Shown here: piece by piece, positions 992-56,340 of the stretch
Layout of the letters: each line of letters begins with the position of its first letter
Position numbering within the stretch: position 1 is the stretch's first letter
Assembly: GCA_964016885.1 (NCBI GenBank)
Contig: OZ024762.1
Span: 4,030,001-4,094,000, forward strand
Length of the DNA stretch: 64,000 nucleotides
Source of the DNA: Eledone cirrhosa
Lineage: Eukaryota
Direction: 5' to 3'
Made by a program: the position numbers and the translations under genes
Notes under the pieces: generated by a model
What the model was told of the DNA's origin: nothing
What the model saw: only the letters and a program-made list of their open reading frames with translations
Databases searched by the model: none

Positions 992-1385
992 AAACTTGGA
1001 CACTAACATCACAACTTGAGAGGAGATTGGATGGCACATATACCCGCCTCTTAATGAGAGTGCAAAACCTATCCTGGAAACGACACCCCACCTTGTCTAA
1101 AATCTATGGCAAACTCCCTCGAGCCTCTGCCCTTCTAAAATCCCGGAGAGCTCAATTTGCTGGCCACTGTCACCGTGCCAGCAATGAAATCATATCCGCT
1201 CTCTTGCTCTGGAACCCTGACTCCAGCCTGACTAGGAGTAGGAAGCTGTCATTCCCTGACGTTATCTCTAGGGATACGGGAATCAGCAGACAGGACCTGG
1301 GGGCAGCGATGGGGGACAGGGGATTCTGGGGCATGAGAGTGAGATCCATCATCTCGACAGTAGTCGACGAGTGATGATGATGATA
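992..1385 (+). mobile_element. 5'-truncated RTE-clade (RTE-X-like) LINE 3' end
   Basis: Translation TWTLTSQLERRLDGTYTRLLMRVQN...RRAQFAGHCHR...LLLWNP resembles the RTE ORF C-terminus; the stop is followed by a (GAT)n tail. Confidence 0.85.
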
Positions 1386-1740
1386 TAAATTATTAGGCCT
1401 CCATAGGTAAAAATACAGTGCTGGGAACTACATGTTCACAGAGGGATACCTCATAGTATGACTTGTCAAATATGTTAATAGGGTTTTAATATTTATCACA
1501 GATCACTTCCTTTAAATACACTAACACTTATGCCAACACTTTACGTATACTTAAGCGTAAAGGATACCTATAGATCAAATGAAAATGCAGTTTAATGCCC
1601 TAAGCCCTCATTTATTTAAACTGTACTATCAATCTCATTGCCTAACAACTACTATATAACTTGCTGCATGGGCAGGGGCACAGTTTCAATGTTTGCCATA
1701 GGAGCTATTTTCCACTCTTACACCTCTGCCTCTAACTGTT

Positions 1741-2065
1741 TGAGTTCAAATCCCGCCGAGGTTAACTTTGCCTTTCATCCTTACGGGGTCGATAAAATAA
1801 AGTACCAGTAATGCACTGGGATAATTGCTGGCCTTGTGCCAAAAGTAGAAACAATTATATATACTAAAAAAGGGCCGTGAATTGGCAGTATCGGTAGAGG
1901 GTCGGACGCCGTGCTTTGACGCATAGAGTTACGGCCCTTGCCATTCTGAGATCAAATCCCACCGAGGTTAACTTTGCCTTTCATCCTTACGGAGGTCGAT
2001 AAAATAAAGTACCAGTAATGCACTGGGATAATTGCTGGCCTTGTGCCAAAAGTAGAAACAATTAT
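1741..2065 (+). mobile_element. Two tandem copies of tRNA-derived SINE family A
   Basis: B-box GAGTTCAAATCC, body GCCTTTCATCCTTACGGGGTCGATAAAATAAAGTACCAG and tail AGAAACAATTA; copies at 1741-1858 (5'-truncated) and 1872-2065. Confidence 0.85.
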
Positions 2066-2659
2066 TTAAACTAAATAAGCTCTCTTGCAATAGATTGAGT
2101 ATTATTTTCCTTGACCTTTTATCTACGGATATCACACACACACACACACACACACCCACACACACACCCACACACACACACACACACAAGCCAACAGTAG
2201 AGCCTCTATGTGGTTATCTGAATTTCTAGAAACAACAGTCACATTTCCACTGTCTTCAAATTAGGAATGACTCATTGAAGAATTTAGTCGAAGATATATG
2301 ATACTGGGGGGAAAATAGACAGGATGGTCATGTTGGGAATACCTTTGAGATTATGTCAGTTTAATGTGTCTATATATGTGTGTGTGTATATATAGAGATA
2401 CAGAGATATATATACACATATATAGAGTTGACACAGACACTCCTAGGGCTTCCTCAAACATTCTTTGATGCAGTTTCTCGTTGTTGTAACAGTCACGTGG
2501 TTAGAGGCAATTAATGGCGCTAAAAATACTGGTATCCACATATATATATATACATATATATATACACACATACACATACAGGCATCTCCATATATACATA
2601 GAGGCATACATACATATATACACATATATATATATACACACTTACAGGCATCTACATAT

Positions 2660-2735
<76 letters not shown>

Positions 2736-2907
2736 TATATATACTTACAGGCATCCACATATATACATAGAGGCATATATATATATATATATATATATAT
2801 ACGGTAGTGTCCAATCCGTATGAAGAACTCAATGTAATCCAAATATCATGAAAAGAGAAAATGCATTCAAAAATTTTCGATGAAAATCCCAGGAAAACAG
2901 AATCAAG

Positions 2908-3253
2908 ATAAATTAATAAAAACAAAGAACAAGTTCCTTATATTAAAAAATTCATCATTTTACGATCGTTTCTAGGATATATATATGTGTGGTGGTATGT
3001 ATATCATATAGATCTATGTAAAAATATTACAAACTATCAGAGGAAATATACATACCTTCACGTTATTTCTGAAGACAGCATATATATGTGTAGGTATGTA
3101 TATTCCCTCTGATAGTTTGTAAAATATTTACATAGATCTATATGATATACATACCAACACACACATATATATCCTAGAAACGATCGTAAAATGATGAATT
3201 TTTTTAATATAAGGAACTTGTTCTTTGTTTTTATTCATTGTTTTTATTAATTT
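2908..3253. repeat. ~150-bp-arm inverted repeat, Penelope-like pLTR fold-back
   Basis: 2908-3057 is nearly the reverse complement of 3092-3253. The ~35-nt spacer contains CTGAAGA, the 5' half of a hammerhead core. Flanked by (TA)n. Confidence 0.75.
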
Positions 3254-4878: not shown

Positions 4879-5429
4879 GCACACATACATATATATATGC
4901 AAACACACACATTCAGAAGCGCATACATATACATAGAGTTACACACCTACAATGATACTTATAATTAAACATATAGTTACACACATACCTGTACGCACAC
5001 ACGTCTACACACATACACTCACACACGTCTACACACATACCCATACGCACACACGTCTACACACATACTCACATTCACACACGTCTACACACATACACTC
5101 ACACACGTCTACACACATACCCATACGCACACACGTCTACACATATACTCACATTCACACACGTCTACACACATACTCACACTCACACACGCACGTCTAC
5201 ATCACTATACATGTACATACACATATCTCTCTCTCTAAGTGTGTGTGTGTGTGTATGTCCACATGTATGTATATATATATATACACACCCTCACACACAC
5301 ATATATATCTATCATACACATGTACACGTTCCTTTGATCCCTATTTCTCGTTACTCCAATCACAGACACGTGACCAGCAAGGGTTTACTACCAAATTGTT
5401 GTACAAACACACACACACACACACACACA

Positions 5430-5900
5430 CATACATATGCATACACACATACATATACATATACATACATAGATATATAAGCACATACATATACATACAC
5501 ACACACATACATATAGATACACACATACATATACATACATACACACACACATATCATCATCATCGTTTAACGTCCGTCTTCCACGCTAAAGACGGACGTT
5601 AAACGATGATGATGATGATGAAATGTATGTGTATGTATGCATATGTATGTGTGTGTATATGTATGTGTGTATCTATATGTATGTCTATATGTATATGTAT
5701 GTGTGTATCTATATGTATGTCTATATGTATATGTATGTGTATCTATATGTATGTCTATATATATGTGTGTGTGTATGTATATGTATGTGCTTATATATAT
5801 ATATATACACATAGATATATAAGCACATACATATACATACACACACACATATATATATATAAACATACATACATACACACACACACATATACATATATAT
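5430..5900. repeat. Fold-back (direct-inverted-direct) duplication centred on a SINE-tail palindrome
   Basis: Perfect hairpin CATCATCATCGTTTAACGTCCGTCTT-ccacgcta-AAGACGGACGTTAAACGATGATGATG near 5555-5614. The marker TATAAGCACATACATATACATAC occurs + at ~5475, rc at ~5775 and + at ~5817. Confidence 0.75.
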
Positions 5901-6182
5901 ATACACATACATATATACATACATACATACACCCACACATCTATGTTCATTGACTTTACCATACAAATGCATGCGTATATATATATATACATATATATAC
6001 ACCCACACACATACATCCTTCCACTTCGCCCACATGTGTATATATCCGCAACACACACACATTTACGTAAATTGACTTTTTCACCCACACACCCTCCCAC
6101 GCCCCTCCCCCCGCCACCGAGAAACTGAGGAATCCTTCCACTGTCCCCCCCCCCGCCCCCCCCCCCTCTACCACTACTGTTG

Positions 6183-6249
6183 GTTACCATAGAAACCTAG
6201 AGCGACACCAGAGAGATTCCTCGTTCGATCACGTGTTTCCATCGACAAC
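6183..6249. promoter_or_regulatory. Candidate cis-regulatory module: two RFX X-box-like motifs and an E-box
   Basis: GTTACCATAGAAAC (6183-6196), CACGTG (6230-6235) and GTTTCCATCGACAAC (6235-6249) in a short CpG-retaining unique island between microsatellites. Confidence 0.4.
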
Positions 6250-6424
6250 TGCAAAATACATATATACACATATATACATACATATATATATATATATAGA
6301 TATATACACATATATACATACATATACATATATATATATATACATATATATATACATATATATATATACACACATACATTCATATATACACATATATACA
6401 TACACACATTCATATACATACACG

Positions 6425-6460
<36 letters not shown>

Positions 6461-6551
6461 TATATTCATACATCTGATCAACAGACGTTCGATGCCACAT
6501 GGATTCAACAACCAGAGAGGGGGGGGGGGTAGATAGATAGAGAGATAGAGA

Positions 6552-6611
<60 letters not shown>

Positions 6612-6669
6612 TACACGATGCCATGGGATACACAATTGGTTTTCGTGTCATTAATGAATTCCGCTACAT

Positions 6670-6691
6670 ACACACACACACACACACATGT

Positions 6692-6722
<31 letters not shown>

Positions 6723-7062
6723 TACACACACATACATACATATATACACAGTATTGGTTTTGCATAATTTGATATAATAAAAAAAAATGTGTACAGTGCA
6801 CATTTTTTAATGAATTCCGCTACACACACACACAGACACATGTACACACACATGTACACACACACACACACATGTACACACACACACACACACACACACA
6901 TGTACACACACACACACGCATGTACACACACACAGACATGTGTACACACACACACACACACAGACACATACACACACGCATGTACACACACACACACACA
7001 CACATGTACACACACAAACACAGACACATGTACACAAACACAGACACATGTACACACACACA

Positions 7063-7099
<37 letters not shown>

Positions 7100-7243
7100 A
7101 CACACACACACACACACATGTACACGCACACACACACACATGTACACACACATGTACACACACACACACATGTGTACACACACACACACATGTACACACA
7201 CACATGTACACACACATGTACACACACATGTACACACACACAC
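6670..7243. repeat. (CA)n / CACATGTA compound microsatellite
   Basis: Directly visible. Confidence 0.9.
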
Positions 7244-7369
7244 TTGATCCACAGAAGTTGGCTGTCCCATGGATTCCACCTCAGAGAGCGGTTGAGAGAG
7301 ATAAACGCAGAGACGCGCAGACATGATTGTATAAAGGATTGATCGACTTTCGTCATATCGGACCGAGGA

Positions 7370-7560
7370 AACACTGTTTCCGTTAGTCTTTCCAGTTGCT
7401 AGTACTATCTGTCGGTCGCAACTCCAGCTAGAAGGAGCAGCGTGAAATAAAGTGTCTTGCTCAAGGACAAAACGCATCGCCCGGTCCAGGAATCGGTCCA
7501 GGAATCGAACTCACAACCTCATGATTGTGAATCCAATTCTCTAACCACTCAGCCACACAC
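7370..7560 (-). mobile_element. tRNA-derived SINE family B
   Basis: rc: GTGTGGCTGAGTGGTTAGAG...GAGTTCGATTCC...TTGTCCTTGAGCAAGACACTTTATTTCAC, i.e. A/B boxes and a CORE-like central domain. Confidence 0.8.
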
Positions 7561-7663
7561 CTTCACGTGTGTGTATATATATATATATATATATAGACAT
7601 AGATACATATGTATGTGTGTCTATATATATATATATAGACATAGATACATATGTATGTGTGTC

Positions 7664-7698
<35 letters not shown>

Positions 7699-7806
7699 TA
7701 AGTATTTCCGAAGAAAACGCAAAGGAAAAAAGAGTGCTCTATGTATAAAACAGAGCTATTTAATTAGAAAGTCAACAACACAATATGTAACTACTCCATT
7801 ACCAAA

Positions 7807-7862
<56 letters not shown>

Positions 7863-7971
7863 TGTTAAACAATATATATATATATATATATATAAGTGTT
7901 AAACAATATTCAATGATTATGTCTTATGATTAAATCTTAACCATTTAACATCTCAGGGTATGTCATGTATC

Positions 7972-8034
7972 ATTATATTTTGTCTGATGAGGACGTACTG
8001 TTGTACATCCGAAATATGTATAATAAAATGTAAT
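7972..8034 (+). ncRNA. Minimal type-I hammerhead ribozyme (Penelope-type), HHR1
   Basis: Stem I ATTATATTTTGT/ATAAAATGTAAT; CTGATGA at 7984-7990; stem II GGACGTAC-tgtt-GTACATCC; GAAA; quasi-palindromic stem III TATGTA; AUA site, cut after 8022. Confidence 0.85.
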
Positions 8035-8119
8035 TGATCAAAAGAACATCTATTTTATTAATACTTATATTTTAATATATATATATATATATATAAATAT
8101 ATATATATATGTTTATATA

Positions 8120-8256
8120 TTTGTTTCTATTTTTGGAACAAGGCCAGCAATTACCCAGTGCATTACTGGTACTATTTTATCGACCCCCCCCCCTCCCGTA
8201 AGGATGAAGGTGAAAGACAAAGTTAACCTCGGCGGGATTTGAACTCAGAATGGCAA
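8120..8256 (-). mobile_element. SINE family A, 5'-truncated
   Basis: Reverse-complement match to 1741-1858. Confidence 0.8.
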
Positions 8257-8310
8257 TATATATAATAAGTTGAGGGAACCAGCATGTATTTCACTGGTAG
8301 TACCTGTTAC

Positions 8311-8368
<58 letters not shown>

Positions 8369-8543
8369 GAAGATCTATTTAAATTGTTGGGATACAACAA
8401 GCAAATATTTTTATAACTGATATAAAGCACTCAACAAATAATTGGAGTAAACATACGATATTAACTATCCGGGAGCTTCCAACAGTAATGGTCGCATTCT
8501 TTAAGGGTATGTCAATATTTATTTATAAAACTGCTCTATATTA

Positions 8544-8608
8544 TATTTTATCTGAAGAAAGCACACCATAATCTAACTTGGTGTCCTTGAAATATGTATA
8601 ATGAAATA
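8544..8608 (+). ncRNA. Minimal type-I hammerhead ribozyme, HHR2
   Basis: Stem I TATTTTAT/ATGAAATA; CTGAAGA at 8552-8558; stem II AAGCACACCA-loop-TGGTGTCCTT; GAAA-TATGTA-TA; cut after 8600. Confidence 0.85.
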
Positions 8609-8647
8609 AATATGGTTTTATAAATATAGTTTCCATTTGTTAATATC

Positions 8648-8699
<52 letters not shown>

Positions 8700-8702
<3 letters not shown>

Positions 8703-9045
8703 GGAGGTGAGTTTTATTGTAGTACAATAAAGCAATGCAGATATCGGATAAGAAGCACTCTACAGTTTGTAGGACTGGAGTATACATAATATATAAGAAC
8801 AAAAGATGGTTAAAAGAGTTCCATGTATTTTATTATGCGCATTTCAAAAACAAATATTTCAAAAACAAATATCATGTTGATTTAATCATGTTGATTTAAA
8901 ACTGCACTATCCACAAGTGTTTTTTAACCTTCATATCATGTCTTCCTGTTTTATCTGATGAAAACACAAATATTATTGCATGATGATATTTGTTTTTGAA
9001 ATGCGCATAATAAAATACATGGAACTCTTTTAACCATCTTTTGTT

Positions 9046-9052
<7 letters not shown>
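8700..9052 (+). mobile_element. Penelope-like pLTR fragment with inverted partial copy, in (TA)n
   Basis: 8791-8856 is the reverse complement of 8985-9050; contains HHR3; a near-identical family member lies at 25717-26002. Confidence 0.75.
8947..9017 (+). ncRNA. Minimal type-I hammerhead ribozyme, HHR3
   Basis: Stem I TGTTTTAT/ATAAAATA; CTGATGA at 8955-8961; long stem II AAACACAAATATTATT-gcat-GATGATATTTGTTTTT; GAAA-TGCGCA-TA with palindromic stem III; cut after 9009. Confidence 0.88.
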
Positions 9053-9111
<59 letters not shown>

Positions 9112-9512
9112 TACATACATTGTTTCATGTATGTCCTTAATAGCAATATGAAATATGAAATAGCAGTTTAGCCCTAGGTCAGCTGTGAACGAGCTGGCCT
9201 CAATAGTTAAAGCCATTCCAATGCTGATCATTTCACATCCTTAGCCACCAGAGCGACTATGTTTAATATTAAAAAAACCTACATTTTCTTAGGCGGTTAT
9301 ATATGATTTTAGGGGTAAGATGTGAGGGAACTGGCTGCTATTTCTGGCAGGTCTTAGTGACCATGTTTAGACGAGTCATTCGTTCGTTGGTTTGGTGTCG
9401 GTTTAGGGAACGTTATAAATAAACATATGTTGTAGAGGGAGAGAGGGGGACAGAGAGAGAGAGAGAGGGGGGAGGGGAGGACACTATCTCGTATTACAAT
9501 CAATCGTTCATT

Positions 9513-12500
9513 AATCATCATCATCATCATCACCACTACTACCATCATCATCATCACCACCATCACCACTACTACCATCATCATCACCACCACCATCACC
9601 ACTACTACCATCATCATCACCACCACCATCACCACTACTACCATCATCATCACCACCACCATCACCACTACTACCATCATCATCACCACCACCATCACCA
9701 CTACTACCATCACCACCACCATCACCACCACCACCACCACCACCACCATCACCACCACCACCACCACCAGCCCACTACTGTCCTCCTCCCCTACACCTCT
9801 TCGTCATCATAATTACTATCATTACCACATCTGTACCGCCACCCCCACATGGTGTTATATGAGAGTGAAATACACCACCACCAACACCCCCACCTACAAC
9901 AACACTACCACCACCACCACCGCCACCACACCACCACCACACCACATCACATCACACCACACCACACCACACCATCACCACCAACACCACACCACACCAT
10001 CACCACACCACACCACCACAACCATCACCACCACCACCACCACATCACTACCACCACCACCACCACCACACAACACCATCACCACCTCACCACCAACACC
10101 ATCACCACATCACACCACCACCACCATCAACACACCATCAACGCACCAACACACCATGCTCAAAACTACCACCACCACCACACCACACCACACCACCACT
10201 ACCACACCACCACAACCACCACTACCACACCACACCAACCACAACCACCACTACCACACCACACCACCACCACCACAACCACCACTACCACACCACACCA
10301 CCACCACCACACCACACCACACCACCACTACCACACCACACCACCACCACCACAACCACCACTACCACACCACACCACACCACCACTACCACACCACCAC
10401 CACCACCACCACCACACCACACCACACCACCACACCACACCACCACACCACATCACACCACACCACCACATCACACCACACCACCACCACACCACCACAC
10501 CACATCACACCACCACCACAGCACATCACATCACACCACACCACATCACACCACCACCACCACCACAGCACATCACATCACACCACACCACATCACACCA
10601 CCACCACACCACCACCACCACCACCACAGCACATCACATCACACCACACCACCACACCACATCACACCACCACCACCACACCACCACATCACACCACACC
10701 ACCACCACACCACATCACACCACCACCACCACCACACCACACCACCACCACAGCACACCACCACCACCACCACACCACCACACCACATCACACCACCACC
10801 ACAGCACACCACCACCACCACCACACCACCACACCACATCACACCACCACCACACCACCACCACCACCACACCACACCACCACCACCACCACCCCACACC
10901 ACACCACATCACACCACCACCACCACACCACCACCATCACACCACCACCACACCACCACCACCACCACCACAGCACAGCACACCACACCACCACACCACA
11001 TCACATCACACCACCACCACACCACCACCACCACCACACCACACCACCACCACACCACCACCACCACCACCACATCACACCACCACCACCACACCACACC
11101 ACCACACCACATCACACCCAAACTACCCTACCCTATATTTCAAGACACACCCTCCGTTGTACCCCAGTGCAGGTGGCTTGGAGGGAAAACACGACGGAAG
11201 TATCTTGTGGTAGTAGTGGTGGTGGTGGTGGTAGTGGTAGTAGTGGTAGTGGTGGTAGTAGTAGTGGTAGTAGTGGTAGTGGTGGTAGTAAAGACAGTAG
11301 TAATGGTAGGGTAGTAGTAGTAGTGGTAGTAGTGGTAGTAGTAGTAGTAGTAGTGGTAGTAGTGGTAGTAGTGGTAGTGGTAGTAGTGGTAGTAGTAGTA
11401 GTAGTGGTAGTAGTGGTAGTAGTGGTAGTGGTAGTAGTGGTAGTAGTAGTAGTAGTAGTGGTAGTAGTGGTAGTAGTAGTAGTAGTAGTGGTAGTAGTGG
11501 TAGTAGTGGTAGTGGTAGTAGTGGTAGTAGTGGTAGTGGTGGTAGTGGTAGTAGTAGTAGTAGTAGTGGTAGTAGTGGTAGTAGTAGTAGTGGTAGTAGT
11601 GGTAGTAGTGGTAGTGGTGGTAGTAAAGACAGTAGTAGTGGTAGTAGTGGTAGTAGTAGTAGTGGTAGTGGTGGTAGTAAAGACAGTAGTAATGGTAGGG
11701 TAGTAGTAGTAGTGGTAGTAGTGGTAGTAGTAGTAGTGGTAGTGGTGGTAGTAAAGACAGTAGTAATGGTAGGGTAGTAGTAGTAGTAGTAGTAGTGGTA
11801 GTAGTGGTAGTAGTAGTAGTGGTAGTGGTGGTAGTAAAGACAGTAGTAATGGTAGGGTAGTAGTAGTAGTGGTAGTAGTGGTAGTAGTAGTAGTGGTAGT
11901 GGTGGTAGTAAAGACAGTAGTAATGGTAGGGTAGTAGTAGTAGTGGTAGTAGTGGTAGTAGTAGTAGTGGTAGTGGTGGTAGTAAAGACAGTAGTAATGG
12001 TAGGGTAGTAGTAGTAGTAGTAGTAGTGGTAGTAGTGGTAGTAGTAGTAGTGGTAGTGGTGGTAGTAAAGACAGTAGTAATGCTAGGGTAGTAGTAGTAG
12101 TGGTAGTAGTGGTAGTAGTAGTAGTGGTAGTGGTGGTAGTAAAGACAGTAGTAATGGTAGGGTAGTAGTAGTAGTGGTAGTAGTGGTAGTAGTAGTAGTG
12201 GTAGTGGTGGTAGTGGTGGTAGTAAAGACAGTAGTAATGCTAGGGTAGTAGTAGTAGTGGTAGTAGTGGTAGTAGTAGTAGTGGTAGTGGTGGTAGTAAA
12301 GACAGTAGTAATGGTAGGGTAGTAGTAGTAGTAGTAGTAGTGGTAGTAGTGGTAGTAGTAGTAGTGGTAGTGGTGGTAGTAAAGACAGTAGTAATGCTAG
12401 GGTAGTAGTAGTAGTGGTAGTAGTGGTAGTAGTAGTAGTGGTAGTGGTGGTAGTAAAGACAGTAGTAATGGTAGGGTAGTAGTAGTAGTGGTAGTAATAG

Positions 12501-26069: not shown

Positions 26070-26130
26070 TTTCATTTACCAGTGGTTTCTTGAAAGCAAA
26101 CAAAATTTGCTTTCAGTCATCAGAATGAAA
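26070..26130 (-). ncRNA. Type-I hammerhead ribozyme, HHR5
   Basis: rc TTTCATT-CTGATGA-cTGAAAGCAAA-ttttg-TTTGCTTTCAa-GAAA-CCACTGG-TA-AATGAAA: 7-bp stem I, 10-bp stem II with a C-A mismatch at its base, GUA site. Confidence 0.8.
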
Positions 26131-43829: not shown

Positions 43830-46800
43830 ATAGTGAGCTGAACTCCCAGAAAACACTGAATTGAAGCTATAAATTCCCTGGCTGTACCTGTTGTCCAGTA
43901 TAGTCTTATGTAATCAATTGGAATTTGAATGAACACCAACATATGGACATAAAAACTAGGAAACTGTTGACATTAAACAGGATGTAACAACAAAAAGCAG
44001 ACGTCCATAGGCCTTATCTTCCACGAAAAGAGGGCAGTAGTGGTCTAATCCAACTTGAAACATCCTATAAAAAGACATGATATGACTCCAAATGTACATC
44101 CAAAGTAACACCGAGTGGACAATACAGTTGGTAGGACAACAGGAATAGGGTAGGAAACTCCACCGAAAGCAGACATATTAATACAGACAAGAGCTTAACC
44201 TCCCTGATCAGGATGTTGATAATGAGGACATGCTACCCACTAAGGCAGCAAAAAGATGTAAAACAAAAGCCAAACAGGAAAGTTTGAAGGAAATGTCAAG
44301 ACTGTGGCAAGATAAACCATTGCAATAACACAAACAAGCTGGGGAAGCTGATGTAGATATGAAAAGGACCCATCAGTAATTGTATAGCACTGGTTTGAAA
44401 ACTGAAACACAAGGATTTATCCGAGCAGCACAAGATCAGAGTCTCCTCATGTAATCTATCAAGCTAATGTCTTGCAAAATGAGGCAGACACAAAGTGCAG
44501 ACTCTGTGATGACATGCTTGAGAACATTGACCACACTGTTGCCAATTGCTCAGTCCTTGCTCCTAGAGAATATAAAAACAGGCGTGATTGAGTTGGCCAA
44601 TACTTGCACTGGAGAATATGCCGGACCACTAAAAACTGATATGAACACCATCCACAGCCAGTCAACGAGGGAGAGAATGTTACTATCCTATGGGATTATG
44701 GGATACATACAGACAGGAAAATAAATGTTAACAGATCAGACAATGTTATCAAAGACCCAAGACAAAAAACATCCCTGTTAATTGAAATGGCAGTGACTAC
44801 TGACAGAACATCTCAGTGAAAGAATTTGAGGAACTATCTAAATACAAGGACCTTGAGATTAAGATAGATTAAAAATCACAATTATCCCCGTTGTTGTGGG
44901 TGCCCTAGGAATGATTAAGTGTTGTTGTGGGAGCCCTAGGAATGATCAAGTGTTGTTGTGGGAGCCCTAGGAATGATCAAGTGTTGTTGTGGGTGCCCTA
45001 GGAATGATCAAGTGTTGTTGTGGGAGCTCTAGGAATGATCAAGTGTTGTTGTGGGTGCCCTAGGAATGATCAAGTGTTGTTGTGGGTGCCCTAGGAATGA
45101 TCAAGTGTTGTTGTGGGAGCCCTAGGAATGATCAAGTGTTGTTGTGGGTGCCCTAGGAATGATCAAGTGTTGTTGTGGGAGCTCTAGGAATGATCAAGTG
45201 TTGTTGTGGGTGCCCTAGGAATGATCAAGTGTTGTTGTGGGTGCCCTAGGAATGATCAAGTGTTGTTGTGGGAGCCCTAGGAATGATCAAGTGTTGTTGT
45301 GGGTGCCCTAGGAATGATCAAGTGTTGTTGTGGGAGCTCTAGGAATGATCAAGTGTTGTTGTGGGAGCTCTAGGAATGATCAAGTGTTGTTGTGGGAGCT
45401 CTAGGAATGATCAAGTGTTGTTGTGGGAGCTCTAGGAATGATCAAGTGTTGTTGTGGGTGCCCTAGGAATGATCAAGTGTTGTTGTGGGAGCTCTAGGAA
45501 TGATCAAGTGTTGTTGTGGGAGCTCTAGGAATGATCAAGTGTTGTTGTGGGAGCTCTAGGAATGATCAAGTGTTGTTGTGGGAGCTCTAGGAATGATCAA
45601 GTGTTGTTGTGGGAGCTCTAGGAATGATCAAGTGTTGTTGTGGGAGCTCTAGGAATGATCAAGTGTTGTTGTGGGTGCCCTAGGAATGATCAAGTGTTGT
45701 TGTGGGAGCTCTAGGAATGATCAAGTGTTGTTGTGGGAGCTCTAGGAATGATCAAGTGTTGTTGTGGGAGCTCTAGGAATGATCAAGTGTTGTTGTGGGT
45801 GCCCTAGGAATGATCAAGTGTTGTTGTGGGAGCTCTAGGAATGATCAAGTGTTGTTGTGGGAGCTCTAGGAATGATCAAGTGTTGTTGTGGGAGCTCTAG
45901 GAATGATCAAGTGTTGTTGTGGGAGCTCTAGGAATGATCAAGTGTTGTTGTGGGAGCTCTAGGAATGATCAAGTGTTGTTGTGGGAGCTCTAGGAATGAT
46001 CAAGTGTTGTTGTGGGTGCCCTAGGAATGATCAAGTGTTGTTGTGGGAGCTCTAGGAATGATCAAGTGTTGTTGTGGGAGCTCTAGGAATGATCAAGTGT
46101 TGTTGTGGGAGCTCTAGGAATGATCAAGTGTTGTTGTGGGTGCCCTAGGAATGATCAAGTGTTGTTGTGGGTGCCCTAGGAATGATCAAGTGTTGTTGTG
46201 GGTGCCCTAGGAATGATCAAGTGTTGTTGTGGGAGCTCTAGGAATGATCAAGTGTTGTTGTGGGTGCCCTAGGAATGATCAAGTGTTGTTGTGGGTGCCC
46301 TAGGAATGATCAAGTGTTGTTGTGGGAGCTCTAGGAATGATCAAGTGTTGTTGTGGGTGCCCTAGGAATGATCAAGTGTTGTTGTGGGAGCTCTAGGAAT
46401 GATCAAGTGTTGTTGTGGGTGCCCTAGGAATGATCAAGTGTTGTTGTGGGTGCCCTAGGAATGATCAAGTGTTGTTGTGGGTGCCCTAGGAATGATCAAG
46501 TGTTGTTGTGGGAGCCCTAGGAATGATCAAGTGTTGTTGTGGGAGCCCTAGGAATGATTAAGTGTTGTTGTGGGAGCTCTAGGAATGATCAAGTGTTGTT
46601 GTGGGAGCTCTAGGAATGATCAAGTGTTGTTGTGGGTGCCCTAGGAATGATCAAGTGTTGTTGTGGGAGCCCTAGGAATGATTAAGTGTTGTTGTGGGAG
46701 CTCTAGGAATGATCAAGTGTTGTTGTGGGTGCCCTAGGAATGATCAAGTGTTGTTGTGGGAGCCCTAGGAATGATCAAGTGTTGTTGTGGGAGCCCTAGG

Positions 46801-49800
46801 AATGATTAAGTGTTGTTGTGGGAGCTCTAGGAATGATCAAGTGTTGTTGTGGGAGCTCTAGGAATGATCAAGTGTTGTTGTGGGTGCCCTAGGAATGATC
46901 AAGTGTTGTTGTGGGAGCCCTAGGAATGATTAAGTGTTGTTGTGGGAGCTCTAGGAATGATCAAGTGTTGTTGTGGGAGCTCTAGGAATGATCAAGTGTT
47001 GTTGTGGGAGCCCTAGGAATGATTAAGTGTTGTTGTGGGAGCTCTAGGAATGATCAAGTGTTGTTGTGGGAGCTCTAGGAATGATTAAGTGTTGTTGTGG
47101 GAGCTCTAGGAATGATCAAGTGTTGTTGTGGGAGCTCTAGGAATGATCAAGTGTTGTTGTGGGAGCTCTAGGAATGATCAAGTGTTGTTGTGGGAGCCCT
47201 AGGAATGATCAAGTGTTGTTGTGGGAGCTCTAGGAATGATCAAGTGTTGTTGTGGGTGCCCTAGGAATGATCAAGTGTTGTTGTGGGAGCTCTAGGAATG
47301 ATCAAGTGTTGTTGTGGGAGCCCTAGGAATGATTAAGTGTTGTTGTGGGAGCTCTAGGAATGATCAAGTGTTGTTGTGGGAGCTCTAGGAATGATCAAGT
47401 GTTGTTGTGGGAGCCCTAGGAATGATTAAGTGTTGTTGTGGGAGCTCTAGGAATGATCAAGTGTTGTTGTGGGAGCTCTAGGAATGATTAAGTGTTGTTG
47501 TGGGAGCTCTAGGAATGATCAAGTGTTGTTGTGGGTGCCCTAGGAATGATCAAGTGTTGTTGTGGGAGCTCTAGGAATGATCAAGTGTTGTTGTGGGAGC
47601 TCTAGGAATGATTAAGTGTTGTTGTGGGAGCTCTAGGAATGATCAAGTGTTGTTGTGGGAGCTCTAGGAATGATCAAGTGTTGTTGTGGGAGCTCTAGGA
47701 ATGATCAAGTGTTGTTGTGGGAGCTCTAGGAATGATCAAGTGTTGTTGTGGGAGCTCTAGGAATGATCAAGTGTTGTTGTGGGTGCCCTAGGAATGATCA
47801 AGTGTTGTTGTGGGAGCTCTAGGAATGATCAAGTGTTGTTGTGGGTGCCCTAGGAATGATCAAGTGTTGTTGTGGGAGCTCTAGGAATGATCAAGTGTTG
47901 TTGTGGGAGCCCTAGGAATAATTAAGTGTTGTTGTGGGTGCCCTAGGAATGATCAAGTGTTGTTGTGGGAGCTCTAGGAATGATCAAGTGTTGTTGTGGG
48001 AGCTCTAGGAATGATCAAGTGTTGTTGTGGGAGCCCTAGGAATAATTAAGTGTTGTTGTGGGTGCCCTAGGAATGATCAAGTGTTGTTGTGGGTGCCCTA
48101 GGAATGATCAAGTGTTGTTGTGGGAGCTCTAGGAATGATCAAGTGTTGTTGTGGGTGCCCTAGGAATGATCAAGTGTTGTTGTGGGTGCCCTAGGAATGA
48201 TCAAGTGTTGTTGTGGGAGCTCTAGGAATGATCAAGTGTTGTTGTGGGTGCCCTAGGAATGATCAAGTGTTGTTGTGGGTGCCCTAGGAATGATCAAGTG
48301 TTGTTGTGGGAGCTCTAGGAATGATCAAGTGTTGTTGTGGGTGCCCTAGGAATGATCAAGTGTTGTTGTGGGTGCCCTAGGAATGATCAAGTGTTGTTGT
48401 GGGAGCTCTAGGAATGATCAAGTGTTGTTGTGGGAGCCCTAGGAATAATTAAGTGTTGTTGTGGGTGCCCTAGGAATGATCAAGTGTTGTTGTGGGTGCC
48501 CTAGGAATGATCAAGTGTTGTTGTGGGTGCCCTAGGAATGATCAAGTGTTGTTGTGGGAGCTCTAGGAATGATCAAGTGTTGTTGTGGGTGCCCTAGGAA
48601 TAATTAAGTGTTGTTGTGGGTGCCCTAGGAATGATCAAGTGTTGTTGTGGGTGCCCTAGGAATAATTAAGTGTTGTTGTGGGTGCCCTAGGAATGATCAA
48701 GTGTTGTTGTGGGTGCCCTAGGAATAATTAAGTGTTGTTGTGGGAGCCCTAGGAATGATCAAGTGTTGTTGTGGGTGCCCTAGGAATGATCAAGTGTTGT
48801 TGTGGGTGCCCTAGGAATGATCAAGTGTTGTTGTGGGTGCCCTAGGAATAAATAAGTGTTGTTGTGGGTGCCCTAGGAATGATCAAGTGTTGTTGTGGGT
48901 GCCCTAGGAATAATTAAGTGTTGTTGTGGGTGCCCTAGGAATGATCAAGTGTTGTTGTGGGTGCCCTAGGAATAATTAAGTGTTGTTGTGGGTGCCCTAG
49001 GAATGATCAAGTGTTGTTGTGGGAGCCCTAGGAATAATTAAGTGTTGTTGTGGGTGCCCTAGGAATGATCAAGTGTTGTTGTGGGAGCCCTAGGAATGAT
49101 CAAGTGTTGTTGTGGGTGCCCTAGGAATGATCAAGTGTTGTTGTGGGTGCCCTAGGAATAATTAAGTGTTGTTGTGGGTGCCCTAGGAATGATCAAGTGT
49201 TGTTGTGGGTGCCCTAGGAATAATTAAGTGTTGTTGTGGGTGCCCTAGGAATGATCAAGTGTTGTTGTGGGTGCCCTAGGAATAATTAAGTGTTGTTGTG
49301 GGTGCCCTAGGAATGATCAAGTGTTGTTGTGGGAGCCCTAGGAATAATTAAGTGTTGTTGTGGGTGCCCTAGGAATGATCAAGTGTTGTTGTGGGTGCCC
49401 TAGGAATGATCAAGTGTTGTTGTGGGTGCCCTAGGAATAATTAAGTGTTGTTGTGGGTGCCCTAGGAATGATCAAGTGTTGTTGTGGGTGCCCTAGGAAT
49501 AATTAAGTGTTGTTGTGGGTGCCCTAGGAATGATCAAGTGTTGTTGTGGGAGCCCTAGGAATAATTAAGTGTTGTTGTGGGTGCCCTAGGAATGATCAAG
49601 TGTTGTTGTGGGTGCCCTAGGAATAATTAAGTGTTGTTGTGGGTGCCCTAGGAATGATCAAGTGTTGTTGTGGGAGCCCTAGGAATAATTAAGTGTTGTT
49701 GTGGGTGCCCTAGGAATGATCAAGTGTTGTTGTGGGTGCTCTAGGAATAATTAAGTGTTGTTGTGGGTGCCCTAGGAATGATCAAGTGTTGTTGTGGGTG

Positions 49801-52800
49801 CCCTAGGAATAATTAAGTGTTGTTGTGGGTGCCCTAGGAATGATCAAGTGTTGTTGTGGGAGCCCTAGGAATAATTAAGTGTTGTTGTGGGTGCCCTAGG
49901 AATGATCAAGTGTTGTTGTGGGTGCCCTAGGAATAATTAAGTGTTGTTGTGGGTGCCCTAGGAATGATCAAGTGTTGTTGTGGGAGCCCTAGGAATAATT
50001 AAGTGTTGTTGTGGGTGCCCTAGGAATGATCAAGTGTTGTTGTGGGTGCTCTAGGAATAATTAAGTGTTGTTGTGGGTGCCCTAGGAATGATCAAGTGTT
50101 GTTGTGGGAGCCCTAGGAATAATTAAGTGTTGTTGTGGGTGCCCTAGGAATGATCAAGTGTTGTTGTGGGTGCCCTAGGAATGATCAAGTGTTGTTGTGG
50201 GAGCCCTAGGAATGATCAAGTGTTGTTGTGGGTGCCCTAGGAATGATCAAGTGTTGTTGTGGGTGCCCTAGGAATGATCAAGTGTTGTTGTGGGTGCCCT
50301 AGGAATGATCAAGTGTTGTTGTGGGTGCTCTAGGAATAATTAAGTGTTGTTGTGGGTGCCCTAGGAATGATCAAGTGTTGTTGTGGGTGCTCTAGGAATA
50401 ATTAAGTGTTGTTGTGGGTGCCCTAGGAATGATCAAGTGTTGTTGTGGGTGCCCTAGGAATAATTAAGTGTTGTTGTGGGTGCCCTAGGAATGATCAAGT
50501 GTTGTTGTGGGAGCTCTAGGAATGATCAAGTGTTGTTGTGGGTGCTCTAGGAATAATTAAGTGTTGTTGTGGGTGCTCTAGGAATAATCAAGTGTTGTTG
50601 TGGGTGCCCTAGGAATGATTAAGTGTTGTTGTGGGTGCCCTAGGAATGATTAAGTGTTGTTGTGGGTGCCCTAGGAATGATCAAGTGTTGTTGTGGGAGC
50701 CCTAGGAATAATTAAGTGTTGTTGTGGGTGCCCTAGGAATGATTAAGTGTTGTTGTGGGTGCTCTAGGAATGATCAAGTGTTGTTGTGGGAGCCCTAGGA
50801 ATGATCAAGTGTTGTTGTGGGAGCTCTAGGAATGATCAAGTGTTGTTGTGGGTGCCCTAGGAATGATCAAGTGTTGTTGTGGGTGCTCTAGGAATGATCA
50901 AGTGTTGTTGTGGGTGCCCTAGGAATGATCAAGTGTTGTTGTGGGTGCCCTAGGAATGATCAAGTGTTGTTGTGGGTGCCCTAGGAATGATCAAGTGTTG
51001 TTGTGGGTGCTCTAGGAATGATCAAGTGTTGTTGTGGGTGCCCTAGGAATGATCAAGTGTTGTTGTGGGAGCTCTAGGAATGATCAAGTGTTGTTGTGGG
51101 AGCTCTAGGAATGATCAAGTGTTGTTGTGGGTGCCCTAGGAATGATCAAGTGTTGTTGTGGGTGCCCTAGGAATGATCAAGTGTTGTTGTGGGTGCCCTA
51201 GGAATGATTAAGTGTTGTTGTGGGTGCCCTAGGAATGATCAAGTGTTGTTGTGGGTGCTCTAGGAATGATCAAGTGTTGTTGTGGGTGCCCTAGGAATGA
51301 TCAAGTGTTGTTGTGGGTGCCCTAGGAATGATTAAGTGTTGTTGTGGGTGCCCTAGGAATGATCAAGTGTTGTTGGAGGTGCCCTAGGAATGATCAAGTG
51401 TTGTTGTGGGTGCCCTAGGAATGATCAAGTGTTGTTGTGGGTGCCCTAGGAATAATTAAGTGTTGTTGTGGGTGCTCTAGGAATGATCAAGTGTTGTTGT
51501 GGGTGCCCTAGGAATGATTAAGTGTTGTTGTGGGTGCCCTAGGAATGATCAAGTGTTGTTGTGGGTGCCCTAGGAATGATCAAGTGTTGTTGTGGGTGCC
51601 CTAGGAATGATTAAGTGTTGTTGTGGGTGCCCTAGGAATGATCAAGTGTTGTTGTGGGTGCCCTAGGAATGATCAAGTGTTGTTGTGGGAGCCCTAGGAA
51701 TGATCAAGTGTTGTTGTGGGTGCCCTAGGAATGATCAAGTGTTGTTGTGGGTGCCCTAGGAATGATTAAGTGTTGTTGTGGGTGCCCTAGGAATGATCAA
51801 GTGTTGTTGTGGGTGCCCTAGGAATGATCAAGTGTTGTTGTGGGTGCCCTAGGAATGATTAAGTGTTGTTGTGGGAGCCCTAGGAATGATCAAGTGTTGT
51901 TGGAGGTGCCCTAGGAATAATTAAGTGTTGTTGTGGGAGCCCTAGGAATGATTAAGTGTTGTTGTGGGTGCCCTAGGAATGATCAAGTGTTGTTGGAGGT
52001 GCCCTAGGAATAATTAAGTGTTGTTGTGGGAGCCCTAGGAATGATCAAGTGTTGTTGGAGGTGCCCTAGGAATGATCAAGTGTTGTTGTGGGTGCCCTAG
52101 GAATGATCAAGTGTTGTTGGAGGTGCCCTAGGAATAATTAAGTGTTGTTGTGGGAGCCCTAGGAATGATCAAGTGTTGTTGGAGGTGCCCTAGGAATAAT
52201 TAAGTGTTGTTGTGGGAGCCCTAGGAATGATCAAGTGTTGTTGGAGGTGCCCTAGGAATGATCAAGTGTTGTTGTGGGTGCCCTAGGAATGATCAAGTGT
52301 TGTTGGAGGTGCCCTAGGAATAATTAAGTGTTGTTGTGGGAGCCCTAGGAATGATCAAGTGTTGTTGGAGGTGCCCTAGGAATGATCAAGTGTTGTTGGA
52401 GGTGCCCTAGGAATAATTAAGTGTTGTTGTGGGAGCCCTAGGAATGATCAAGTGTTGTTGTGGGAGCCCTAGGAATGATCAAGTGTTGTTGTGGGTGCCC
52501 TAGGAATGATCAAGTGTTGTTGGAGGTGCCCTAGGAATAATTAAGTGTTGTTGTGGGAGCCCTAGGAATGATCAAGTGTTGTTGTGGGTGCCCTAGGAAT
52601 GATCAAGTGTTGTTGGAGGTGCCCTAGGAATGATTAAGTGTTGTTGTGGGAGCCCTAGGAATGATCAAGTGTTGTTGGAGGTGCCCTAGGAATAATTAAG
52701 TGTTGTTGTGGGAGCCCTAGGAATGATTAAGTGTTGTTGTGGGTGCCCTAGGAATGATCAAGTGTTGTTGGAGGTGCCCTAGGAATAATTAAGTGTTGTT

Positions 52801-55800
52801 GTGGGAGCCCTAGGAATGATCAAGTGTTGTTGGAGGTGCCCTAGGAATGATCAAGTGTTGTTGTGGGTGCCCTAGGAATGATCAAGTGTTGTTGGAGGTG
52901 CCCTAGGAATGATTAAGTGTTGTTGTGGGAGCCCTAGGAATGATCAAGTGTTGTTGGAGGTGCCCTAGGAATAATTAAGTGTTGTTGTGGGAGCCCTAGG
53001 AATGATTAAGTGTTGTTGTGGGTGCCCTAGGAATGATCAAGTGTTGTTGGAGGTGCCCTAGGAATAATTAAGTGTTGTTGTGGGAGCCCTAGGAATGATC
53101 AAGTGTTGTTGGAGGTGCCCTAGGAATAATTAAGTGTTGTTGTGGGAGCCCTAGGAATGATCAAGTGTTGTTGTGGGAGCCCTAGGAATGATCAAGTGTT
53201 GTTGTGGGTGCCCTAGGAATGATCAAGTGTTGTTGGAGGTGCCCTAGGAATAATTAAGTGTTGTTGTGGGAGCCCTAGGAATGATCAAGTGTTGTTGTGG
53301 GTGCCCTAGGAATGATCAAGTGTTGTTGGAGGTGCCCTAGGAATAATTAAGTGTTGTTGTGGGTGCCCTAGGAATGATCAAGTGTTGTTGTGGGTGCCCT
53401 AGGAATGATCAAGTGTTGTTGTGGGTGCTCTAGGAATGATCAAGTGTTGTTGTGGGTGCTCTAGGAATGATCAAGTGTTGTTGTGGGTGCCCTAGGAATG
53501 ATCAAGTGTTGTTGTGGGTGCTCTAGGAATGATCAAGTGTTGTTGTGGGTGCCCTAGGAATGATTAAGTGTTGTTGTGGGTGCCCTAGGAATGATCAAGT
53601 GTTGTTGTGGGTGCCCTAGGAATGATCAAGTGTTGTTGTGGGTGCTCTAGGAATGATCAAGTGTTGTTGTGGGTGCCCTAGGAATGATCAAGTGTTGTTG
53701 TGGGTGCTCTAGGAATGATCAAGTGCAAGTGTTGTTGTGGGTGCCCTAGGAATGATCAAGTGTTGTTGTGGGTGCCCTAGGAATGATCAAGTGTTGTTGT
53801 GGGTGCCTCTAGGAATGATCAAGTGTTGTTGTGGGTGCCTAGGAATGATCAAGTGTTGTTGTGGGTGCCCTAGGAATGATCAAGTGTTGTTGTGGGTGCC
53901 CTAGGAATGATCAAGTGTTGTTGTGGGTGCCCTAGGAATGATCAAGTGTTGTTGTGGGTGCTCTAGGAATGATCAAGTGTTGTTGTGGGTGCCCTAGGAA
54001 TGATCAAGTGTTGTTGTGGGTGCCTAGGAATGATCAAGTGTTGTTGTGGGTGCCCTAGGAATGATCAAGTGTTGTTGTGGGAGCCCTAGGAATGATCAAG
54101 TGTTGTTGTGGGTGCCCTAGGAATGATCAAGTGTTGTTGTGGGTGCTCTAGGAATGATCAAGTGTTGTTGTGGGTGCCCTAGGAATGATCAAGTGTTGTT
54201 GTGGTGCCTAGGAATGATCAGTGTTGTTGTGGGTGCCCTAGGAATGATCAAGTGTTGTTGTGGGTGCTCTAGGAATGATCAAGTGTTGTTGTGGGTGCCC
54301 TAGGAATGATCAAGTGTTGTTGTGGGTGCTCTAGGAATGATCAAGTGTTGTTGTGGGTGCCCTAGGAATGATCAAGTGTGTTGTGGGTGCCTAGGAATGA
54401 TCAAGTGTTGTTGTGGGTGCCCTAGGAATGATCAAGTGTTGTTGTGGGAGCCCTAGGAATGATCAAGTGTTGTTGTGGGAGCCCTAGGAATGATTAAGTG
54501 TTGTTGTGGGTGCCCTAGGAATGATAAGTGTTGTTGTGGGAGCCCTAGGAATGATTAAGTGTTGTTGTGGGAGCCCTAGGAATGATCAAGTGTTGTTGTG
54601 GGAGCCCTAGGAATAATTAAGTGTTGTTGTGGGAGCCCTAGGAATGATTAAGTGTTGTTGTGGGAGCCCTAGGAATGATTAAGTGTTGTTGTGGGTGCCC
54701 TAGGAATGATTAAGTGTTGTTGTGGGTGCCCTAGGAATGATTAAGTGTTGTTGTGGGAGCCCTAGGAATGATCAAGTGTTGTTGTGGGAGCCCTAGGAAT
54801 GATCAAGTGTTGTTGTGGGAGCCCTAGGAATGATCAAGTGTTGTTGTGGGTGCCCTAGGAATGATCAAGTGTTGTTGTGGGAGCCCTAGGAATGATTAAG
54901 TGTTGTTGTGGGTGCCCTAGGAATGATTAAGTGTTGTTGTGGGAGCCCTAGGAATGATCAAGTGTTGTTGTGGGTGCCCTAGGAATGATCAAGTGTTGTT
55001 GTGGGAGCCCTAGGAATGATTAAGTGTTGTTGTGGGTGCCCTAGGAATGATTAAGTGTTGTTGTGGGTGCCCTAGGAATGATTAAGTGTTGTTGTGGGAG
55101 CCCTAGGAATGATCAAGTGTTGTTGTGGGAGCCCTAGGAATAATTAAGTGTTGTTGTGGGAGCCCTAGGAATGATCAAGTGTTGTTGTGGGAGCCCTAGG
55201 AATAATTAAGTGTTGTTGTGGGTGCCCTAGGAATGATTAAGTGTTGTTGTGGGAGCCCTAGGAATGATTAAGTGTTGTTGTGGGTGCCCTAGGAATGATT
55301 AAGTGTTGTTGTGGGTGCCCTAGGAATGATTAAGTGTTGTTGTGGGAGCCCTAGGAATGATTAAGTGTTGTTGTGGGAGCCCTAGGAATGATTAAGTGTT
55401 GTTGTGGGTGCCCTAGGAATGATTAAGTGTTGTTGTGGGTGCCCTAGGAATGATTAAGTGTTGTTGTGGGAGCCCTAGGAATGATCAAGTGTTGTTGTGG
55501 GAGCCCTAGGAATAATTAAGTGTTGTTGTGGGAGCCCTAGGAATGATCAAGTGTTGTTGTGGGAGCCCTAGGAATAATTAAGTGTTGTTGTGGGTGCCCT
55601 AGGAATGATTAAGTGTTGTTGTGGGAGCCCTAGGAATGATTAAGTGTTGTTGTGGGTGCCCTAGGAATGATTAAGTGTTGTTGTGGGTGCCCTAGGAATG
55701 ATTAAGTGTTGTTGTGGGAGCCCTAGGAATGATTAAGTGTTGTTGTGGGAGCCCTAGGAATGATTAAGTGTTGTTGTGGGTGCCCTAGGAATGATTAAGT

Positions 55801-56340
55801 GTTGTTGGAGGTGCCCTAGGAATGATTAAGTGTTGTTGTGGGAGCACTAGGAATGATCAAGTGTTGTTGGAGGTGCCCTAGGAATGGTCAAGTGTTGTTG
55901 TGGGTGCCCTAGGAATGATTAAGTGTTGTTGTGGGTGCCCTAGGAATGATCAAGTGTTGTTGTGGGAGCCCTAGGAATAATTAAGTGTTGTTGTGGGTGC
56001 CCTAGGAATGATCAAGTGTTGTTGTGGGAGCCCTAGGAATGATCAAGTGTTGTTGTGGGTGCTCTAGGAATGATCAAGTGTTGTTGTGGGAGCCCTAGGA
56101 ATGATTAAGTGTTGTTGGAGGTGCCCTAGGAATGGTCAAGAAAGGCACCAACTAATTCATTGACCAGGTCCAAAGGAAACAACAATCTATGAGGTTCAAA
56201 ATAATTGTTCTAACTTCAACCATTCTCCTTCTCAGGAAACCTCTCTGTCTGATGTGTACATGCTTCAGGCCTCTGCTTGAGACCTGGTTGGAAGATGAAA
56301 TAAAATGGAAATCAAATGAAAAAAAAAAAAAAAAAAAAAA
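43830..56340 (+). mobile_element. Decayed R4/Dong-clade LINE (RT thumb, CCHC knuckle, RLE, poly-A) split by an 11.25-kb satellite
   Basis: AINSLAVPVVQY..DIKTRKLLT..YLPRKEG..GL; CRLCDDMLENIDHTVANC; LWDYGIHTDRKI..NRSD; IIPVVVGALGMIK [array] KGTN..IVLTST..LLRK; poly-A at 56319-56340; many stops and frameshifts. Confidence 0.9.
44890..56140. repeat. 31-bp satellite GTTGTTGTGGGTGCCCTAGGAATGATCAAGT, ~363 copies
   Basis: Period 31 (units at 44890 and 44921); the unit is the LINE codons for VVVGALGMIK plus one T. Confidence 0.97.

Follow-up and report, generated by a model that had tools for sequence, protein, structure and literature searches.

Three hammerhead ribozyme motifs lie in tandem on one strand within about 1 kb of the Eledone cirrhosa genome. 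Is such a trio an RNA-processing device, or is it what dense retrotransposon insertion leaves behind? The locus is part of a stretch of 64,000 nucleotides (contig OZ024762.1, positions 4,030,001 to 4,094,000 of the forward strand; hereafter the window, in whose numbering all positions are given). A preliminary description had noted the three motifs, HHR1 to HHR3, and proposed that a plus-strand transcript would release circularisable, retrozyme-like RNAs assembled from independent insertions.

The motifs were located with a descriptor made up of CUGANGA, a paired stem II, GAAA, UH and a stem I of at least 6 bp. On the plus strand of the 64-kb window it found cores at 7984, 8552 and 8955, all three with an AUA triplet, and on the minus strand a fourth motif belonging to the HHR3 family (core 25814); a looser fifth motif was seen at 26123, also on the minus strand. 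When the 64 kb were subjected to 100 local dinucleotide shuffles no motif was obtained, as compared to the four real ones. HHR1 (7972..8034) is a type I hammerhead motif with a G-C closing pair, a 12-bp stem I (7972-7983/8023-8034), the core CUGAUGA at 7984-7990, stem II at 7991-8010, GAAA from 8011 and helix III with its loop at 8014-8021. HHR2 (8544..8608) has an A-U closing pair, an 8-bp stem I (8544-8551/8601-8608), the core CUGAAGA at 8552-8558 and stem II at 8559-8588. HHR3 (8947..9017) also has an A-U closing pair, with an 8-bp stem I (8947-8954/9010-9017), its core at 8955-8961 and stem II at 8962-8997. Judged from their sequence, self-cleavage is predicted after 8022, 8600 and 9009, at spacings of 578 and 409 nt. 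The scan and the shuffles thus confirmed three intact plus-strand motifs with the cut sites and spacings first described. The claim of a palindromic helix III was also borne out, as the 8-nt segments are fully self-complementary, identical in HHR1 and HHR2 including G-U pairs and a Watson-Crick palindrome in HHR3. All three motifs share with type I hammerheads the CUGANGA/GAAA/UH core, helices I and II and a short helix III with a palindromic loop permitting a dimeric fold, and each of them, folded in isolation, forms its stems with probabilities of 0.52-0.99.

The Rfam search suggested in the preliminary description was run: in 5000-12000 no hammerhead family reached E≤5, and in 7905-8070 and 8460-8645 none reached E≤10; the matches obtained were microsatellite-driven miRNA and snoRNA noise. 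Because the Rfam hammerhead models do not match, the assignment rests on core, pairing and covariation. The stem II sequences had been called unrelated. Instead, 120 distinct motifs from the loci examined, which come from few families and are not independent events, share a plan in which 3 bp are followed by an unpaired position, with C on its 5' side, and then by an upper helix. Positions 1-3 and 5-8 are paired in 101-119 of the 120, with several pair types (compensatory); position 4 is unpaired in 118, and the first position, A-U in HHR2 and HHR3, is paired in 112. The unpaired C at position 4, seen in nearly all of these motifs, is a candidate tertiary or protein contact.

Each hammerhead sits in a unit of its own. 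From left to right, a (TA)n tract carrying a short duplicate of the unit 1 tail end (7811..7894) is followed by the inverted tail arm of unit 1 (7895..7923, minus strand), consisting of the final ~29 nt of the tail; loci L093-L100 contain the same stretch in sense, ~68 nt past the short end of the forward arm. The forward arm of unit 1 (7926..8074, plus strand) is the pLTR of a Hydra-type Penelope-like element (PLE) family, running from a shared 5' zone to the short 3' end, and a further (TA)n tract (8075..8120) closes the unit. The spacer between units 1 and 2 (8121..8312) is made up of a very high-copy repeat fragment and ~55 nt absent elsewhere: the repeat part (about 8121-8260), which is unrelated to the units and presumably SINE-like, has matches in 17 of 49 loci, and neither 8255-8312 nor the right flank had a match in any of the 49. 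Unit 2 follows a (TA)26 tract (8313..8365) and comprises an inverted tail arm (8366..8465, minus strand), which in L101 and L102 continues the forward arm in sense, and a forward arm (8466..8648, plus strand) that is the pLTR of a second Hydra-type family. A (TA)25 tract (8649..8699) is common to units 2 and 3. In unit 3 the inverted tail arm (8700..8857, minus strand) and the forward arm (8888..9047, plus strand) flank an inversion junction (8858..8887) with two short local duplications (periods of 15 and 14 nt) that differs between copies; the forward arm is the pLTR of a young Hydra-clade PLE, starting at its shared 5' end (8888) and stopping at the short 3' end, and a (TA)30 tract (9048..9107) lies to its right. 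Within unit 3, 8789-8857 is perfectly complementary to 8986-9054. This 69-nt inverted repeat was overlooked in the preliminary description and spans the GAAA, helix III, the cut site and the 3' strand of stem I of HHR3. At 7700-7810, adjoining the TA tract of unit 1, there is also a fragment related to the 26123 family in which no hammerhead core was seen; it is probably a fourth insertion in the same cluster.

Every unit proved to be a dispersed multi-copy repeat with (TA)n on both sides, an inverted tail arm and a forward ribozyme arm. The searches gave 111 first-look candidates for unit 1, 2855 for unit 2 and 938 for unit 3; 40 were scored for each, at 90-99% identity for unit 1 and 92-97% for unit 2. 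The flanks differ between dispersed copies, and each unit belongs to its own TA-bounded family; the earlier suggestion of independent insertions is supported. The two arms are joined head to head, and the forward arm, which carries the hammerhead, stops at an internal end that we call short. Of the HHR3-family arms, 69 stop at the short end, another 69 reach the tail end ~90 nt further and stop there, and 23 run past it; 134 of the 138 short and tail ends enter TA-rich sequence. Head-to-head pairs combine one short and one tail end in 42 of 47 cases in the HHR3 family and in 12 of 12 HHR1-like cases. Many loci were chosen with hammerhead-bearing queries, which biases the arm-end counts; in loci not picked for their shape the same pairing was found in 8 of 12 (HHR3 family) and 4 of 4 (HHR1-like), and in the other four HHR3-family loci one arm runs on beyond the tail end. 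Mutually duplicate loci and the window's own place are excluded from the arm, chimera and neighbour counts, and HHR2-like rows from the arm counts, because the HHR2-like reference itself ends in TA and makes tail-end classification unreliable.

The forward arms share a 5' end. Among the 15 contig joints listed from runs X21 and X23, which are one sample with 132 further joints, 13 reach 8888-8889 from different places and a 14th reaches 8890. The inversion junctions vary from copy to copy, and because of this the units appear to be made afresh rather than copied whole. Arm ends at the cut site were looked for as a sign of cleavage in vivo, and no peak was found: only 2 of 174 HHR3-family arms (L039 and L184) start within 5 nt of it, whereas the 10-nt bin containing the shared 5' end holds 45, which fits an uncut template. 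In L184 and L039 the arm starts 1 and 3 nt ahead of the predicted cut, and one of these two insertions has an 818-codon frame; both are possibly rare copies of cleaved RNA.

The parent of unit 3 was reached from three copies that share a longer 5' flank. Searching by the Pfam GIY-YIG domain (PF01541; 30 loci and 20 long-frame stretches) yielded other PLE families only, and 0 of the 20 long frames had units 1-3 as their own pLTR. The HHR3 unit is the pLTR of a young PLE with an 821-codon RT-endonuclease frame: its forward arm matches the 3' ends of copies with an ORF (L125, L135) at 99-100% identity and the full-length L298 at 96%. The parent is organised as pLTR(HHR3)-tail-5'UTR-821-codon ORF-3'UTR-pLTR, with full units in L298-L300, where tandem arrays (L298 2006-6113, L299 and L300) have a period of 3.85-3.9 kb (3854-3936 nt) and near-identical 821-codon open frames. 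A stop-free frame of 821 aa was listed for 57 of 150 scored matches (hand count). The tail was considered as the start of the ORF and this was ruled out, as it is 5'UTR, lying ~70 nt before the first in-frame ATG and ~90 nt before a conserved-looking second ATG.

Two domains were recognised in the parent protein by motif, RT with YRDD at 378 and, at the C-terminus, an endonuclease of the GIY-YIG type with YFGST at 714. The protein further contains DKT at 143, a CxCx5C linker at 680, CxxC at 780, preceding a conserved E, and CxH at 808; at the RWK position it has RLRW at 56, followed by T or I instead of K. Pfam gave no domain in the C-terminal 460 aa, the part that was scanned, and no CCHH motif was seen in the endonuclease when the protein sequence was inspected by eye, with no alignment to CCHH-bearing references. 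Fifteen database relatives were found, at 31-38% identity. By these motifs, rather than by an RT tree, the parent is placed as a Hydra-clade PLE.

For units 1 and 2 the exact parents were not found, only sister families with broken ORFs that are 45-58% identical to the HHR3 parent. In six sister-family loci (L208, L218, L228 and L302-L304) the pLTR, at 83-86% identity, lies on the same strand as a Hydra-type ORF. The sister family of unit 1 (84-86%) shows pLTR-ORF-pLTR in L302, where the ORF is frameshifted and shares 52-56% identity with the HHR3 parent, and that of unit 2 (83%) is found downstream of an ORF that contains DKT and shares 58% identity with the same parent (L303). Units, parent and sister ORFs together agree with the first assignment of these motifs to PLE hammerheads with an unstable, palindromic helix III. 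In the shared 5' zone of HHR1-like parents there is a TCA site resembling an initiator, where transcription would start, and 31 nt upstream of it a TATA-like box is present. The box lies outside the solo unit and is absent from the window copy.

How do these families compare with known elements? For the Hydra clade, (TA)n targeting and hammerheads have been described (PMC8557442, Craig et al. 2021), and the marks given there are DKT instead of DKG, a CxCx5C linker, and CxxC and CxH around conserved E and N. Our parent resembles the clade in a single ORF that encodes RT and then a C-terminal endonuclease, in DKT, CxCx5C, CxxC and CxH, in the (TA)n target and pLTR hammerhead, and in an inverted 5'-truncated copy with a tail at one end only. 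It differs in the length of its unit, 3.85-3.9 kb as compared to the usual <3 kb, in a tail of about 90 nt instead of the 30-40 bp given for PLEs, and in its many intact, near-identical copies (PMC8557442). The hammerhead, with its 8-nt self-complementary helix III, long stem II and C mismatch, is unlike all Hydra motifs in File S2 of that paper, and the published cephalopod Hydra-1_Obim carries a different one according to its supplement.

Dispersed single PLE hammerheads in their thousands are already in print (PMC4209133), as are inverted 5'-truncated copies, a tail at one end only and TA targeting (PMC4209133; PMC8557442). The motifs of Cervera and De la Pena 2014 are likewise type I with a 2-bp helix III, a palindromic loop and a long helix II, occurring as thousands of mostly single dispersed motifs from truncated PLEs in which close pairs are on opposite strands (PMC4209133). 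Compared with the minimal consensus given there, no bulged base is present between 9 and 10.1 in our motifs, the G10.1-C11.1 pair is found only in HHR1, and stem I is 8-12 bp and A/U-rich. By eye, TA-bound 3' ends of other PLE families (L103, L104, L108, L109, L115 and L120) show a U3/A8-type hammerhead-like variant with a CCGG palindrome, which may be the U3-A8 variant of PMC4209133.

An experimental counterpart is PAc, the Poseidon PLE of the green anole (Frangieh et al. 2024; PMC11167929), whose hammerhead cleaved only with the element's protein, was dispensable for insertion and gave no RNA-seq ends at its cut site; an uncut template was used in vitro by this PLE. As in our families, two fixed 3' ends flank a tail downstream of the hammerhead, the target is AT-rich and copies read through the uncut ribozyme (PMC11167929). 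The tail lies in the 5'UTR here, whereas it is inside the ORF in PAc, and the short and tail ends are paired in almost all two-armed insertions here, whereas no strand difference in the start site was seen for PAc in vitro (PMC11167929).

Taken together, our results make it very probable that the locus holds three pLTR ribozymes of different TA-targeting PLE families which came by three independent insertions and share a strand by chance; the shared strand is likely chance because the three units likely arrived independently. We propose that the parent endonuclease would cut both strands of a (TA)n tract (partly after what is reported in PMC11167929) and that from both ends reverse transcription of an uncut RNA would be primed, at two fixed internal positions that lie ~90 nt from each other in its 5' part. 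One cDNA would often reach the 5' end of the RNA and the other would stop early, and head-to-head joining of the two would give a unit of ~180-350 bp. Such an insertion would leave TA tracts on both sides as targets for the next one, and in this way three families may have inserted within 1.1 kb. The selected role of the ribozymes would be in tandem transcripts of the parent, as homodimers or with help from the protein, and at this locus the hammerheads are likely passengers. What we describe are new families of a known clade in what is likely a chance arrangement. Titles and abstract openings in the literature that was searched, with subscription papers and repeat databases outside the search, contained nothing on these families or on strict short-plus-tail pairing.

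All PLE hammerhead types passing the descriptor were counted in sixty-nine 10-kb stretches on a fixed grid (689,800 bases). The 23 motifs found, one per 30 kb, correspond to about 100,000 in the 3.0-Gb genome, an estimate that rests on these 23 and therefore spans roughly 63,000-150,000. Within 1.1 kb of 94 anchors, kept after dropping loci whose anchor failed the descriptor, 22 neighbour insertions were found against 6.9 expected, a ~3-fold enrichment (P 3e-6), as predicted if TA tracts are shared targets. Five of these neighbours are on the same strand, 12 on the opposite strand and five two-armed (P 0.14 against 50:50). At these rates the genome should hold between 14 (if insertions are uniform) and 140 (if they are clustered) same-strand triplets spanning no more than 1 kb, which gives no support to the trio being special. 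Among the other loci with two or more neighbours, 0 of 4 had all three motifs on one strand, which leaves the triplet number an estimate. With ~100,000 motifs genome-wide and insertions that share TA patches, the cluster is likely an ordinary by-product of dense TA-targeting insertion and not a circular-RNA device. The grid motifs were on the minus strand in 18 of 23 cases, on contigs that are arbitrarily oriented, and in the 294-kb neighbourhood the strands were 7 and 7; this skew is probably chance.

We nevertheless weighed the circular-RNA proposal at the level of RNA structure. A plus-strand read-through RNA would fold HHR1 and HHR2 into a double hammerhead in cis with swapped stem I strands, cut after 8022 and 8600, and release a 578-nt piece whose ligation would give a circle with a complete chimeric hammerhead, an accidental proto-retrozyme. 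The pairing that this demands is indeed there in the sequence: the swapped stems I pair over 8 and 12 bp and helix III over 8 of 8 positions. In an RNA ending just past HHR2 the modelled dimer comes within about 2 kcal/mol of the two monomer folds, and for HHR1 and HHR2 the homodimer, taken in isolation, is ~6 kcal/mol more favourable than the monomers, all in nearest-neighbour energies that ignore tertiary contacts and folding order. The same calculations place the constrained dimer 14 (nascent), 22 (two-unit) and 30 kcal/mol (three-unit RNA) above the free ensemble at 37 C, as compared to 12, 8 and 9 kcal/mol for the two monomers, and the palindrome duplex contributes only -2.2 kcal/mol. The earlier heterodimer idea therefore stands as to sequence compatibility, whereas the fold is predicted to be disfavoured. 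A partnership of HHR2 with HHR3 is 88 kcal/mol above the ensemble. In every RNA modelled with the inverted arm, the stem probabilities of HHR3 drop to 0.00 and the energies differ by about 42 kcal/mol; HHR3 is thus predicted to be sequestered by that arm in any RNA starting upstream, which makes the proposed 409-nt piece unlikely.

The genomic copies bear on the same proposal. The 578-nt piece (8023-8600) is whole in 1 of 40 scored places, which is the window's own, and it is accordingly no dispersed unit between cut sites of the kind that retrozymes have. An insertion derived from the circle would be expected to carry a chimeric motif; among the 159 motifs with both flanks classified (of 224) there are 0, which counts against the 578-nt circle. 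The TATA-like box of HHR1-like parents is, as noted, missing in the window copy, metazoan PLE hammerheads are described as of low activity even as dimers (PMC4209133), and the anole hammerhead required its PLE protein and left no RNA-seq ends at the cut (PMC11167929). Animal retrozymes are reported to derive from PLE pLTRs (bioRxiv 10.64898/2026.07.22.740005), and the non-LTR retrozymes resemble our locus in having several same-strand type I hammerheads a few hundred bases apart and related to pLTRs (PMC7229834; bioRxiv 10.64898/2026.07.22.740005). In these sources, though, a retrozyme repeats one homologous unit in tandem and is expressed as circles, whereas three different families are present here, with TA tracts and an unrelated repeat between them, in a composite found once, and repeat analysis of the locus showed no tandem period of homologous hammerhead units. 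With HHR3 predicted to be locked, the dimer predicted to be disfavoured and the composite unrepeated among the scored matches, the retrozyme-like RNAs of ~578 and ~409 nt are not supported, and we regard the HHR1:HHR2 circle as very improbable. The general form of the idea, that compatible cross-family pairs such as HHR1:HHR2 fold as chimeric double hammerheads and release circles with an intact ribozyme, seems to us equally improbable; same-strand pairs within 600 nt are estimated at 1,000-3,000 genome-wide. If chimeric circles do arise, the locus would be a snapshot of retrozyme birth from Penelope-like debris, and the proposed PLE origin of retrozymes would become directly testable.

Could the solo units instead be small transcribed SINE-like elements, with an internal promoter and cleavage in trans as same-family homodimers? 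The very high copy number and the shared 5' end would fit, as would the ~14 kcal/mol by which the HHR3 homodimer is favoured over two monomers, and an internal promoter is cited for Drosophila Penelope in PMC8557442. Such elements would be copied whole, and the variable inversion junctions speak for units made afresh; the match of 99-100% to the 3' ends of ORF-bearing copies and the position of the TATA-like box of HHR1-like parents outside the unit also argue against it, leaving this explanation very improbable. A host function under selection, with the trio acting for instance as a terminator or an RNA-decay signal of a plus-strand transcript, has in its favour three intact cores on one strand. 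Units this young, at 92-100% identity to dispersed copies, need no selection to keep their cores intact, chance alone predicts 14-140 triplets of this kind, and the only clear Pfam exons nearby, in the 145 of 189 candidate frames scanned, are minus-strand LRR/CARD exons about 35 kb away, which makes a selected module extremely unlikely.

The surroundings of the cluster offer a few further observations. In ~60 kb to its left and 100 kb to its right Pfam recognised no plus-strand exon in the 145 of 189 candidate frames that were scanned, and the locus may still be genic. The LRR- and CARD-like exons lie on the minus strand at G000:C23:3990106-4003375 (L244, L245), about 35 kb to the left, and the gene's 5' part could reach in the direction of the cluster, on the other strand from the hammerheads. 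A second cluster of two insertions occupies 26240-25720 on the minus strand, where a TA tract separates an HHR3-family unit (core 25814) from a member of another family (core 26123) whose helix III segment is 9 nt long. At about 46000-56000 a steady GC skew of about +0.5 over 10 kb is probably a long satellite array, and a dispersed 72-bp minisatellite family is found near several insertions (L084 2231-3786, also L097, L102 and L046).

The cluster itself carries little weight, as it is what a TA-targeting hammerhead retrotransposon leaves at such a density. More is offered by the parent, a very young Hydra-clade PLE whose 821-codon frame is intact in dozens of copies and which is a ready substrate for in vitro work, named by Craig et al. 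as the next step for PLEs (PMC8557442). The near-constant pairing of short and tail ends points to priming that is coupled between the two cut strands on a single RNA, which would extend the anole result and can be tested. Finally, the copies extend across an uncut ribozyme and their ends do not accumulate where it would be cut, which bears on what the hammerheads of Penelope-like elements do.
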